DNA of 64,000 nt from positions 67,270,001 to 67,334,000 of the forward strand of contig OX597825.1 of assembly GCA_951406725.2 (NCBI GenBank), written 5' to 3'. A program made the translations under genes and the position numbers. Source of the DNA: Octopus vulgaris. Lineage: Eukaryota. Positions 9,652 to 16,040 of this stretch are shown in pieces. Each line of letters begins with the position of its first letter. Position 1 is the stretch's first letter. Below the pieces are notes generated by a model. It saw nothing but the letters and a program-made list of their open reading frames with translations, did not search any database and had not been told where the DNA came from.

Positions 9652-12449
9652 TTGATTTATTGATTCTATTGATTCCAGTTTCAGCTCATGAGCTGTGGCC
9701 ATGCTGGGGCACCGCCATTTGGTGTTGCTACTTGGTTTCACTTCATGGAGGCTTTCTAGCAACTGCTATTTGGTGCATGAGAGAGTTCGATGCAGCTGCC
9801 CTCATCTGCCCCTCCTGCCGTGAAGTTGGTTCATCTGGGACACCTGACAGGAAGAGATCCAGCTTCATTTTAAAGACATCTGTATCCACCCCATGCAGGT
9901 CTCTCAGGTTCTTCGGGAGGATATTGAAGAGCTGTGGGCCTCGGAAGCCCAGGCTATCACAGAATCTTGTCCTACATCTTGATGGCAGGTTTGGAGTCCT
10001 TGGCACCACGCAGTGGCGCCCAGTTCTGGCATTTGCGTAACTCTCGATGCCAAAGTTCAGGACACTTCCCTCCAGGATCTTCCAGATGTATATTATGGCA
10101 TATCTTTCCCGCCTACGCTCCAGAGAATATAATTTTAATCTCTTGAGTCTTTCCCAGTAGCTTACATTCTGCATAGAGGCTATCTTCTTTGTGTAGCTTC
10201 GTTGGATCGCCTCAAGTTCTGTGATCAACTTGACACTGGATGGTGACCATAGCTGAGAGCAATAGTCAAAGTGGCTTAGGACAAGTGTCTTCCAGAGGAC
10301 CATCATGGTTTTTTGTTCTCTTGTTCTAAAGGTTCTAAGAATCCATCCAGCCAGCCGTCTACATTTCATTGCCAGTTTAGCAACATGTACATGAAAGGTC
10401 GCGTCATCACTCATGTGAATACCCAGGTCACGCACTGATTGTGCCTCTGGGATTGCAATCCCTCTGGGTCCAGTGTATTCATTGGGTATTGCATTCAGTT
10501 TTGCATGCTGATAGTATAAAGCTTGAAACTTTCCAGCATTGAACTGCATGCTATTCTTTTCAGCCCACTTGTATATTTCGTCCAGCTCACATTGCAGGTG
10601 TTTAGTGTCCTCAGGGTTCTGTATTGCCTGTGAAACTTTTGTATCATCTGCATAACTTGTGATCGTGGCTGTCTGCGTGGCTGAGGGCATGTCTGAGAGG
10701 GCCATTATGAACAGTAGTGGTCCCAGAACAGTGCCCTGCGGAACACCGCTCACTATTTGTGTGTTAATGGAGGTGGCCCCATTGGCTACTACCACCTGAC
10801 TTCTATCCTTCAGAAAGTCATGAAGCCATTCTCCCAGTTTTCCAACTATGTTGAGATCACGCAGTTTGTGACATATCATTCCATGATCGACTTTATCAAA
10901 GGCCTTTGCAAAGTCGAGATATATCACTTCCACATTTGAGTGGTTGAGCAGCCGTTTCAGCACCCAGTCATAGTGTTGTAGGAGCTGAGTTAAACAGCTT
11001 CTCCCTGGTCGGAAACCATGTTGGGTGTCGGGCAGCAAGTCATTCTCTTCAAGGAAGGTGATCAGCTTCCTTCTGACTATTCGTTCCATGACCTTGCTGA
11101 TGTGTGAGGTCAGAGAGATAGGTCTATAGTTCTTGGCTTCCGCTCTGCTACCTCCTTTATGAATGGGGCATATTTTACCTTCCTTCAGTTTTCCTGGAAG
11201 TTTGCCAGCTGCAAGGAAGCTCTGAAAGAGGAACTGCAGTGGTCTTGCTAGGACTCTCTTACATGCTTTTAGGAGGATTGCCGGGAATCCATCGGGGCCA
11301 GTAGCTGAGTCTGTTTTCATTTCATCTATAGCCTTGGTTACATCGTCTTCCTTTATATCGATGTAATCTATCGTCGCCGCCTCTGATTTTATATCTGCAG
11401 TGGTAAAAAAGTCAGTTGGATTGGTGATTTGGAGATGCCCAAGGGGTGGAGTGAAAACACTCTTGAATTGCTCATTCAGTATTTCACTTACCCTCATTGG
11501 TTTTCCTGTAAGTGTGCCATCCTTTTCGAGGAGTGGCCCTATTCTACAGTGCACTGTAGCTGTTTCTTTGGCATACCTGTAGAAAGCTCTGGGGTTAGAT
11601 TTTATGTTTTCTATAGCCCAGGCTTCTTTGTCTGCTCTTTCTTTTTCATGGGAGAGTTGCAGACATTTTTCGATTTCCAACAGTTTTATTTTTAGGCGGG
11701 ACTTTTCACTGCTTTCAATCTGTTTGTTTAGGCGATTTGAAAATTTCGTACGCCGTCTCATTAAAATTTTCCTCTCTCTGGGGATTTTGTTCTTGTGTAC
11801 AGTGGCCTTTCTCTCTGGGACACATTTGTAGCATATGGCTTGCATTACAGACATGAATTGTTGAAGTTTCACGTCGATGTCTGGCGAGGAGAGACATTTA
11901 GGCCAGTTTTGTTTGAGGATCTCTTTCTCAATTTGTTTCCAGTTTGCCTTATGGTAGTTCAAGCTGGAAAGATTTTGAGGGTTTCTTGTAGGCTGCATGT
12001 CCGTGCTCTCTTTTGGCCCGTACATGGTCAGCTCTATCATGTTGTGATCCGAGAGTATTGTCGGTGTCACTTTCACATTATGGATGAGATCCATGTCATT
12101 TGTGAAGCAGAGATCCAGTGTGTTACCTGCCCTGGTTGGTTGGAGTATTACCTGCTCCATGTACAGGGTGTTGATGAGGTTCAGGAGGGACCTCGCCTGT
12201 CCTCGTTCACATCTTGTCATTCCTGGGAGAGAAAGGCCCTCGGGCCATCTGACATTGGGCAGATTGAAGTCTCCCATAAGAAGCACACCTATGTGTTGTT
12301 CTAATGTGGTTAGAATTTCTTCTATTTTTATAAGGCAGTCTTCAAACTTGCCCACATGGCTTGGGGCATCTGGAGGGCGATATGTAGCACACACAACTAC
12401 ATCAAGTTGCCTAATATGTACAATTAGTGTGTCACACACCGAGTTTGAG
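9652..12449 (-). mobile_element. CR1-group LINE family 1, copy 1, 5'-truncated inside the APE domain
   Basis: Open ORF2, short 3' UTR with hairpin and GAATCAATA-type tail, both ends abut (TA)n. Confidence 0.95.
9743..12449 (-). CDS. LINE ORF2 (partial APE endonuclease plus reverse transcriptase), ~900 codons without stops, no native start
   Basis: APE motifs YRPP, GDFN, TLDL, SDH; RT motifs [41 protein letters not shown]1-type C-terminus [16 protein letters not shown]. Confidence 0.92.
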
Positions 12450-14345
12450 TATATATATGTATATATATATATATATATATATATATATATATATATATAT
12501 ATATATATATATATATATATATATATATATATATATATATATATATATATATATATATATATATATATATATATATATATATATATATATATGTATATAT
12601 ATATATATATATATATATATATATATATATATATATATATATATATATATATATATATATATATATATATATATATATATATATATATATATATATATAT
12701 ATATATATATATATATATATATATATATATATATATATATATATATATATATATATATATATATATAAAAAATATATATATATATATATATATATATATA
12801 TATATATATATATATATATATATATATATATATATATATATATTATATATATATATATATATATATATGTATATATATATATATATATATATATATATAT
12901 ATATATATATATATATATATATATATATATATGTATATATATATATATATATATATATATATATATATATATATATATATATATATATATATATATATAT
13001 ATATATATATATATATATATATATATATATATATATATATATATATATATATATATATATATATATATATATATATATATATATATATATATATATATAT
13101 ATATATATATATATATATATATATATATATATATATATATATATATATATATATATATATATATATATATATATATATATATATATATATATATATATAT
13201 ATATATATATATATATATATATATATATATATATATATATATATATATATATATATATATATATATATATATATATATATATATATATATATATATATAT
13301 ATATATATATATATATATATATATATATATATATATATATATATATATATATATATATATATATATATATATATATATATATATATATATATATATATAT
13401 ATATATATATATATATATATATATATATATATATATATATATATATATATATATATATATATATATATATATATATATATATATATATATATATATATAT
13501 ATATATATATATATATATATATATATATATATATATATATATATATATATATATATATATATATATATATATATATATATGTATATATATATATATATAT
13601 ATATATATATATATATATATATATATATATATATATATATATATATATATATGTATATATATATATATATATATATATATATATATATATATATATATAT
13701 GTATATATATATATATATATATATATATATATATATATATATATATATATATATATATATATATATATATATATATATATATATATATATATATATATAT
13801 ATATATATATATATATATATATATATATATATATATATATATATATATATATATATATATATATATATATATATATATATATATATATATATATATATAT
13901 ATATATATATATATATATATATATATATATATATATATATATATATATATATATATATATATATATATATATATACATATATATATACATATATATATAC
14001 ATATATATATATATATATATATATATACATATATATATATATATATATATATATATATATATATATATATATATATATATATATATATATATATATATAT
14101 ATATATATATATATATATATATATATATATATATATATATATATATATATATATACATATATATATATATATATATATATATATATATATATATATATAT
14201 ATATATATATATATATATATATATATATATATATATATATATATATATATATACATATATATATATACATATATATATATATATACATATATATATATAT
14301 ATACATATATATATATATATATATATATATATATATATATATATA
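12450..14345. repeat. ~1.9 kb nearly pure (TA)n array
   Basis: Direct reading; length may be assembly-dependent. Confidence 0.9.
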
Positions 14346-15886
14346 TCCTTCTCAAATCGTGCAAACGAGCCCTTGCAAAACCGCTACAGCTTCTTTTTCA
14401 GAGCTTTCTTGCAAGTGGTAAGCTCCCAGTCAAACTGAAAGAGGGGGTAATATGCCCTATCCATAAGGGAGGTAGCAGAGCAGATGCTAAAAATTATAGG
14501 CCTAACTCTCTGACCTCACACATCAGCAAAGTCATGGAACGAATAGTCCGTAAGAAACTAATCATGTTCCTTGAAGAAAATGACTTACTGTCTGACACCC
14601 AGCATGGATTTCAACCAGGTAGAGGACGCCTAACACAGCTCCTGCAACACTATGACTGGGTGTTGAAACAGCTACTAAATGGCTCAAATGTGGATGTAAT
14701 ATATCTCGACTTTGCAAAAGCCTTTGATAAAGTCGACCATGGTATGATCTGTCACAAACTGCGTGGTCCCGGCATAGGCGGGAAACTTGGAGAGTGGCTG
14801 CACAACTTCCTAAAAGACAGAAAACAGGCAGTTGTGAGCAATGGAGCCACCTCCAAGGAAACGCAAATAACAAGCGGTGTCCCACAGGGCACTGTCTTGG
14901 GGCCACTGATGTTCATAGTGGCCCTTTCAGACATGCCTTCAGTTGCTACGATGACCACCCTTGCTAGCTATGCAGATGACACAAAAGTCTCCCACGCAAT
15001 ACAAAACCCTGAAAATATTGCGCATCTGCAACATGAGCTGGACACAATATACAGGTGGGCTGAGGACAACAACATGCAGTTTAATGCAGGTAAGTTCCAG
15101 GCCCTGCGCTACTGGCACACAAAGGTAAATGACGTGAAGACTGGATACACTGGCCCAGGAAGAATTGCAATCCCTGAGTCAAAATCAGTGCGTGACCTGG
15201 GCATTGACATGAGCAATGATGCATCTTTCCAAATGCATATTGCTAATCTGGTGATAAAATGCAGACGGCTAGCTGGATGGATTCTCCGAACTTTCAGAAC
15301 AAGAGAGAAGGAGACACTGATGGTCCTATGGAAAACATTTGTCCTCAGCCGCTTGGACTACTGCTCCCAACTTTGGTCACCACACAATATAAAACAAACA
15401 GCAGAACTCGAAGCAACTCAGAGAAGCTACACAAAGAAAATCGTCTCAATGCAAAATGTCAGCTACTGGGAAAGACTGAAGGTATTAAACCTCTTCTCCC
15501 TGGAGCGGAGGCGGGAGAGATATGCAGTGATATACATCTGGAAAATCCTGGAGGGTCTTGTCCCAAACTTTGGCATTCAAAGTTACTCCAACCGCAGAAC
15601 GGGGCGCCGCTGCGTGGTGCCAAGGATTCCAACATCACCATCAAAATACAGGTCCAGATACTGCAACAGCTTGGGTTTCAGAGGACCACAGCTCTTTAAC
15701 ATCCTCCCTAAATGCCTGAGAGACTTACATGGTGTGGATGTGGGTTTCTTTAAAACTAAACTGGATCTCTTCTTGTTGGGAGTCCCAGATGAACCTACCT
15801 CACGACAGGAGACACGGATGCGGGCAGCAGCATCGAACTCCCTTGTTGATCAAGTGCCACGTATCAGAGGTGGATTCACAAACTAG
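14345..15886 (+). CDS. LINE ORF2 reverse transcriptase part
   Basis: Frame is open from [14 protein letters not shown] through [41 protein letters not shown]; clearly paralogous to but distinct from family 1. Confidence 0.92.
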
Positions 15887-15960
15887 TGTAGCTCATTCAG
15901 CGGTGGTGCCCCAGCATGGCCGCGGCCTTCGGGCTAGAACATTTTTAAGGATTTAAGGAT
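14345..15960 (+). mobile_element. CR1-group LINE family 2, 5'-truncated
   Basis: Open frame 14345-15886, 3' UTR hairpin and (TTTAAGGA)2 tail, flanked by (TA)n. Confidence 0.95.
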
Positions 15961-15986
15961 ATATATATATGTATATATATATATAT

Positions 15987-16040
15987 TAAGTTAGACATGG
16001 CCTGGGCCAATAATGGCCGAAACCTATCAAAGTATCAAAG
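15987..16040 (+). mobile_element. Tail-only fragment of a third related LINE/SINE family
   Basis: CATGGCC-TG-GGCC-aataat-GGCC-GAAAC-CT-(ATCAAAGT)2 embedded in (TA)n. Confidence 0.65.

Follow-up and report, generated by a model that had tools for sequence, protein, structure and literature searches.

In a 64,000-nucleotide stretch of the Octopus vulgaris genome (contig OX597825.1, positions 67,270,001 to 67,334,000; the whole stretch is hereafter called the window) two families of long interspersed elements (LINEs), LINE1 and LINE2, and a family of short interspersed elements, SINE C, end in the same kind of 3' tail, which in sense orientation consists of a first hairpin (H1), 1-2 nt, a second hairpin (H2), AAC, and short repeats (Table 1). 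We conclude that this shared 3' end is probably a predicted two-hairpin recognition tag of an invertebrate CR1-clade lineage, likely bound by the product of open reading frame (ORF) 2, and that SINE C likely spreads by means of a captured copy of it. H1 has the form GGYGGTGC-YCCA-GCATGGCC, that is three pairs, a G·G mismatch, a G·U followed by three more pairs, and a 4-nt loop. A first-pass annotation made from the sequence alone had named a sequence upstream of CATGGCC as common to LINE1, LINE2 and SINE C, and it is indeed present in them, but it is not a separate motif: GGYGGTGCYCCAG and CATGGCC together are the single hairpin H1, which lies within the minimum free energy (MFE) fold. The SINE C copy at 38.9 kb carries GGCGGTACTCCAG, one change from that upstream motif.

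Table 1. Elements, tail parts and (TA)n arrays in the window
Feature	Positions	Strand	Remarks
LINE1a, 5'-truncated CR1-clade LINE	9652..12449	-	ORF2 piece open, 903 aa, stop at 9743; then 3' UTR (untranslated region) and tail
LINE1a H1	9697..9716	-	GGC g GTGC ccca GCAT g GCC; G·G mismatch with adjacent G·U
LINE1a H2	9682..9695	-	CAGCT catg AGCTG, then AAAC
LINE1a terminal repeat	9650..9675	-	9-nt unit, three times, merging into (TA)n
LINE1b, short LINE1 copy	16573..17213	-	98% identical to LINE1a; H1 16616-16635; H2 loop CATA; repeat a 4-mer
LINE2, 5'-truncated CR1-clade LINE	14347..15960	+	RT (reverse transcriptase) ORF open, 513 aa, stop at 15886
LINE2 H1	15902..15921	+	GGT g GTGC ccca GCAT g GCC
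LINE2 H2 and repeat	15924..15960	+	GGCC ttcg GGCT, AGAAC, (TTTAAGGA)2
Bare tail fragment	15985..16043	+	H1 3' arm only (last 7 nt); H2 GGCC aataat GGCC; GAAAC; 8-nt repeat
SINE C, full copy	45418..45856	+	Head with Pol III box-like motifs; (TA)/(TG) tract within body; H1 45790-45809; H2 45811-45824; repeat 45830-45856
SINE C, full copy	38901..39298	-	One H1 stem change; inserted at end of older related copy 38507-38891
SINE C, full copy	52807..53222	-	
SINE C, 3' part and tail	45067..45212	-	H1 A-U to G·U, one-sided; H2 loop ACAT
SINE C, 3' part and tail	42808..43059	+	Then long (TA)n; covariance model E 5.9e-16, outside its training set
(TA)n array at LINE1a 3' end	8872..9652		
(TA)n array between LINE1a and LINE2 5' ends	12450..14346		
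(TA)n array between bare tail fragment and LINE1b	16041..16573		

The tail strings quoted in that annotation are all present in the sequence. CATGGCC is followed in LINE1a (9697-9703, minus strand) by AC-AGCT-catg-AGCT-GAAAC-TG and the 9-nt repeat, in LINE2 (at 15915, plus strand) by GC-GGCC-ttcg-GGCT-AGAAC-ATT-(TTTAAGGA)2, in the bare tail fragment (at 15996 and not, as had been given, at 15987) by TG-GGCC-aataat-GGCC-GAAAC-CT-(ATCAAAGT)2, and in SINE C (at 45803, 38933 and 52858) by GC-AGTC-aaat-GACT-GAAAC-AA-(GTAAAAGA)n. A fifth, closing C-G pair of H2 is present in LINE1 and SINE C and broken in LINE2 and the bare tail fragment. The count of three LINE-type tails has to be reduced to two LINE families, since the bare tail fragment is without an ORF and without the H1 5' arm, its CATGGCC being preceded by 11 nt of other sequence; it could derive from a SINE as well as from a LINE, and the label 'LINE' is unsupported. 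The copies that had been listed are there, but LINE1b, the two SINE C 3' parts of Table 1 and older SINE C tails at about 22017 and about 2885 had been missed.

Between SINE C and LINE1 the tail, which aligns at 84% over 44 nt (E 3.5e-6), is the sole homology. The word CATGGCC alone is barely above chance, with nine occurrences in the window against 3.99 expected and at least nine in 3 of 100 shuffles; seven of the nine are tails and those at 46734 and 57970 are not. LINE1, LINE2 and SINE C have nearly the same H1, including its loop, but not the same H2 or repeats, and even LINE1a and LINE1b, at 98% identity, differ from each other in H2 loop (CATG against CATA) and in repeat unit. Thus the common part of the LINE and SINE C tails is H1, rather than the H2 loop or the repeat. 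The change of the LINE1 repeat unit, a 9-mer in LINE1a and a 4-mer in LINE1b (16573-16593), suggests slippage at priming.

When the 41-nt sense RNAs of LINE1a, LINE2 and SINE C were folded and compared with 200 shuffles each, with the antisense strand as control, the double hairpin of LINE1a had an MFE of -18.0 (z -2.50, 4 of 200 shuffles as good; antisense z +0.11), that of LINE2 an MFE of -21.7 (z -2.19, 6 of 200; antisense z +0.21) and that of SINE C an MFE of -17.8 (z -3.45, 0 of 200; antisense z -1.03). In an alignment of eight window tails 96.6% of the cells pair, and two-sided changes occur in 3 of 12 pairs, all of them in H2. The covariation score exceeded that of all 500 shuffles, whereas the number of pairs with two-sided changes was matched by 41 of the 500. 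As evidence of covariation the window by itself is weak, because the eight rows amount to four families and two of the H2 stems are palindromic. These same points, the palindromic 4-mer H2 arms of LINE1 (AGCT) and the bare tail fragment (GGCC), the four families and the 41 shuffles, would be expected if the covariation were an artefact of palindromes duplicated by slippage, combined with a loose descriptor framed after the fact. The bare tail fragment did score E 2.9e-6 with the covariance model made from the window tails, but it was part of the training set.

More distant LINEs bear on this question. Alignment of the C-terminal part of the ORF gave an outside set of 17 metagenome loci (about 7 of 64 parts scanned) and 2 genome-contig loci, and the covariance model used on them was built from window tails only. 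A model of this kind had been proposed in the first-pass annotation, and it found an outside match, the tail of locus L004 (E 0.0048), which was the sole match with E below 1 among the 19 loci. A descriptor was then applied that consisted of three pairs, a G·R mismatch, at least four pairs, a linker of 0-3 nt, a second stem of at least three pairs, and AA[ACG]. It was applied to 14 of the 19 loci, the other five being upstream-only matches or more distant, and as one of the 14 was too short, 13 were testable. The descriptor matched within 200 nt past the ORF match in six of these 13 (L004, L006, L007, L009, L010 and L011), whereas dinucleotide shuffles of the tested regions matched at a rate of 0-2.3%; at 2.3% the binomial chance of 6 in 13 is 2e-7, or 7e-6 with L007 and L010 counted once. 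Elsewhere in the 19 loci there were two other matches in 80,638 nt (both strands). In the window (128 kb over both strands) the descriptor matched six tails and nine non-tail places, and it matched once in L026/L027, a non-homologous pair, which favors the artefact.

The ends were also located without regard to structure, by taking the first tandem repeat past each ORF and folding the preceding 64 nt. An H1 with G·G or G·A was in the MFE fold of L004, L006, L007, L009, L011 and L012, out of ten loci with a repeat; the strict repeat rule picked up no terminal repeat in L010 or L013. When any mismatch was allowed in the descriptor, G·G was found in 5 of 8 matches past the ORF end compared to 2 of 19 in the background (Fisher p 0.011), and the remaining three were one G·A, one U·C and one A·A. 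With ten H1s placed in register, all 70 of 70 pair cells are standard pairs, which is so by construction, but three or four pair types occur at six of the seven stem positions and three at the other, the mismatch is G·G in nine rows and G·A in one, and each outside locus has 2-7 two-sided H1 changes relative to LINE1. MAFFT misaligns the H1s across lineages. By these models the sense-strand fold recurs with changed sequence in distant LINEs. The covarying hairpin of the first-pass annotation thus holds in so far as pairing is kept while sequence changes, which is seen best in the distant homologues, although it is thin in the window and the element is a double hairpin. Against the artefact stand H2 arms that are non-palindromic in SINE C and in the outside loci, matches that sit at an end defined by the repeat, the enrichment of G·G with the relaxed descriptor, and antisense folds no better than shuffles; we regard the artefact as very improbable.

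The carriers of the double hairpin have 40-47% amino acid identity to the octopus proteins and fall in several branches of one clade (98/95) in which most deep forks are open. On the tree the hairpin label does not cluster among the labelled rows (a value as low came up in 202 of 500 shuffles), which is compatible with an ancestral trait that has decayed but is no proof of one. Two tests of the capacity of the protein end to encode H1 were made: among C-terminal peptides 48 of 64 could encode it against 43.5 expected, which is not discriminating, and with the last 12 aa the count was 34 against 20 expected, with related families uncollapsed. In the remaining loci L013 and L015 have no end, L005, L008, L016 and L019 show a partial fit or none, with L019 having a clear H2 and an H1 variant with a perfect stem, and L012 (2834-2854) has a longer 3' UTR with a G·G-bearing H1 immediately before a 5-nt repeat and no H2, possibly a natural single-hairpin variant.

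How such a tail might act can be outlined from eel and zebrafish L2 elements. For ZfL2-1 and ZfL2-2 it has been shown that the stem-loop is required, that the loop gives specificity, and that the region intervening between endonuclease and RT binds it (PMC4176376), and the stem of UnaL2 has to contain a bulge and a U-U mismatch (PMC1636434). By analogy, the corresponding region of the octopus ORF2 may bind H1, which is likely the docking site, and the G·G mismatch of H1 may be a flexible hinge or a contact point. The distance to the terminal repeats would be fixed by H2 and AAC, and these repeats would pair with TA-rich DNA at a nick and so prime the cDNA in target-primed reverse transcription. 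As H1 hardly varies among LINE1, LINE2 and SINE C but H2 and the repeats do, more than one octopus family of the group can probably use SINE C.

A stricter version of the recognition-tag model, in line with the suggestion of the first-pass annotation that loop and tail may encode family specificity, is that every family's ORF2 recognizes the particular H2 loop and repeat of that family, H1 being a general handle, and that SINE C has a dedicated partner LINE with AGTC-aaat-GACT elsewhere. H2 and the repeat do differ in all four families with pairing kept (the three two-sided pairs and the score above all 500 shuffles), ZfL2-1 and ZfL2-2 are discriminated through the loop (PMC4176376), and four RT motifs of this group each occur 19-21 times in the mollusc LINE alignment of PMC10294476, which suggests about 20 related clusters and makes an unseen partner plausible. 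On the other hand, the H2 loop and the repeat vary between the nearly identical LINE1 copies and the H2 loop varies in one SINE C copy, though these may be changes after insertion, L012 apparently ends with H1 alone, and the partner LINE, for which the first-pass annotation had advised a search, was not found in the window. We consider such a one-to-one code quite possible but somewhat short of an even chance, and our slight leaning toward cross-mobilization is a soft choice.

It could also be that SINE C captured a CR1 3' end a single time and that the hairpins serve 3'-end formation or stability of the transcript, not recognition by ORF2. Conservation of a fold is silent on its binding partner, and in L007 (846-884) and L010 (2581-2619) the ORF runs through H1 with the stop inside the H2 loop, so that the RNA tag overlaps the last codons. 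What makes this improbable is that the fold lies directly 5' of the terminal repeats in both the LINEs and the SINE, whose transcripts are likely made by different polymerases, that these 44 nt are all that SINE C retains of LINE sequence, and that the L2 stem-loops that have been tested work in ORF2 binding (PMC4176376).

The proposal that SINE C is mobilized by this LINE group, which was made in the first-pass annotation, we likewise grade as likely, and it agrees with the TA-rich insertion context that the two share. Several points weigh against the recognition-tag reading and have to be set beside the evidence given above. No LINE with the exact H2 and repeat of SINE C was found in the 64-kb window. 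The covariance model is weak on the other outside tails (L019 E 2, L006 E 6.1) or gives no score, the folding z of the 64-nt ends (-0.4 to -3.4) is modest in most loci, and 7 of the 13 testable loci miss the full descriptor. The descriptor was written after the outside downstream sequences had been viewed and so was not blind (G·A and AAG were allowed; L011 had gone unnoticed by eye), and since L007 and L010 are sister rows (75%) the six matches represent five lineages. Finally, the four LINE-type insertions share one 10-kb cluster and are not independent.

As regards that context, the window is AT-rich DNA of animal type in which microsatellites and dispersed repeats abound. Each of the four LINE-type pieces is flanked by (TA)n on either side, whereas positions in such a setting make up 7.3% of the window and 1.8% outside the cluster. 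Of the five SINE C tails whose repeat is intact, four run into TA (with TA at a frequency of 0.128, p is about 0.001), but the SINE C repeat unit itself ends in TA and slippage could contribute to the TA downstream. The 5' flanks of the three full SINE C copies are alternating purine-pyrimidine in 9-11 of 11 steps, and at least 9 is reached in 11% of the background. No clear target-site duplication was seen at the LINE or SINE C insertions in the window.

The window LINEs belong, by their sequence, to the CR1 clade, because the LINE1 RT nearly matches a row that a published tree classes as CR1: over about 220 aa it shows, as judged by eye, 6 substitutions and a 2-residue gap relative to O.sinensis_104_LINE, and O.sinensis_104_LINE and O.bimaculoides_1_LINE are classed as Jockey/CR1 (Martelossi et al. 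2023, PMC10294476, Data S2, Table S7). They have CR1 features in that endonuclease and RT are in one ORF and the 3' hairpin is followed by short tandem repeats; the LINE1a ORF2 piece (P0001) matches the endonuclease PF14529 (E 6e-12) and the RT PF00078 (E 1.7e-30). All LINE copies in the window are 5'-truncated, and LINE2 and LINE1a have 77.6% nucleotide identity over 1500 nt. Among named proteins, those closest to the LINE ORF come from Argonauta hians (62-63%), the PDB holds only the distant relatives L1 and R2, and no relatives were found in the viral contigs, plasmids and phages searched. When contigs of four sequencing runs were aligned to window positions 15500-16045, related pieces numbered in the thousands in X1 and X6, the matches listed ending before the tail and 15952-16045 being skipped. 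Membership in CR1-Zenon, which has a poly(A) tail (PMC13343379), is unlikely, as the window tails end in repeats of 4-9 nt without poly(A). A wider view, which we put forward as speculation and think rather unlikely, is that a large and old sub-lineage of CR1 in invertebrates (thousands of relatives at 44-51% identity) employs a hitherto undescribed RNA code in two parts, with a clade-wide G·G hairpin as the ORF2 docking site and a swappable H2 and repeat as family tag and primer, and that its octopus branch is a CR1 that targets (TA)n microsatellites and drags a high-copy SINE into TA tracts.

The octopus tail resembles UnaL2 with UnaSINE1, and ZfL2-1 and ZfL2-2, in a stringent tail shared by LINE and SINE, a mismatch a few pairs from the loop, and terminal repeats (PMC1636434, PMC4176376, PMC5135761), and its G·G, 4-5 pairs from the loop, is placed like the internal loops of tested tails (PMC5135761). 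Those elements, however, are of the L2 clade, with a single stem, a bulged C, a U-U mismatch and a GGAUA loop, and were tested experimentally, whereas the octopus tail has two hairpins, a G·G mismatch and a YCCA loop and is known from sequence and predicted fold. Amniote CR1 elements likewise have an APE and RT ORF followed by a hairpin and a short tandem repeat, at which the RT has been proposed to recognize its template, but with one hairpin and a near-fixed 8-mer instead of two tandem hairpins, a kept G·G and repeat units of 3-9 nt that vary from family to family (PMC8665684). The nearest mollusc parallel is bivalve CR1-14_CGi with BivaV-SINE2 and BivaCORE-SINE1, where SINEs bear a CR1-group tail with compensatory changes (PMC4824008; these tails are also treated in PMC4758252 and PMC11481361). 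The bivalve SINE tails, though, are AT-rich and, by eye, have no H1-like GC hairpin with G·G, and they belong to another lineage, CR1-14_CGi being classed as CR1-Zenon (PMC11481361). Common tails of LINEs and SINEs are established, with CR1 and RTE the commonest donors, and the available parts of the table in PMC3747384 hold no octopus pair, the word 'octopus' occurring 0 times. The octopus CR1 rows of PMC10294476 concern RT classification, and the parts examined contain no 3' tail structure or octopus SINE partner. In the literature searched we did not find the double hairpin, the G·G, the pairing of an octopus SINE with a CR1 or a TA-targeting CR1 described, which is a weak absence as Repbase, Dfam, SINEBase and Ohshima and Okada 1994/2005 were outside the search.

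The principle that a SINE borrows a LINE tail is therefore textbook, and what is new, as far as searched, is this fold and the octopus pairing; to specialists the result will be neat rather than surprising, the underlying principle being long established. Its value is that it points to the element that likely drives an abundant octopus SINE, that a 40-nt RNA of which nature supplies variants opens CR1 tail recognition to experiment, the mechanistic work cited being on L2 elements, and that the double-hairpin fold can serve to identify members of this CR1 lineage, and its SINEs, when sequences no longer align.

The three full SINE C copies are about 400-440 nt long with 85-91% mutual identity and no coding capacity, and there are several partial copies besides. 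The head has A/B box-like motifs, judged by eye against the consensus; ARAGORN found no tRNA in SINE C, and in Rfam neither a tRNA nor any other family matched in the SINE C region. The octopus SINEs OK, OR1 and OR2 are tRNA-derived, as Ohshima and Okada reportedly described in 1994, and the size and layout of SINE C suggest that it may be OK. Just 5' of H1 SINE C has a third small hairpin (about 45763-45781 and about 52879-52897) that the LINEs are without, and its start resembles a motif of a second SINE family. This second family has about 35 matches in the window (e.g. 47139-47384, 6405-6650 and 35400-35592), by eye often adjoins (AAT)n and not TA, and has at least two other tails, one usually running into (AAT)n and the other being arranged head to tail in tandem arrays of period 184 nt (6460-6929); these tails point to other partner LINEs.

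Genome-contig matches L001-L003, L021-L022, L023-L024 and L025-L027 were set aside as chance or tailless pieces, L001-L003 being matches in bacterial records. L024, a 574-nt contig in a bacterial bin (Mycoplasma sp. MAG, metagenome-assembled genome), encodes a piece of an animal LINE clade and is likely host contamination. The (TA)n field at 8872-18687, about 10 kb, contains the four CR1-type insertions in both orientations, which suggests targeting of TA arrays and nesting, and it begins right after the end of another repeat (at about 8870) that bears a small inverted repeat of its own.

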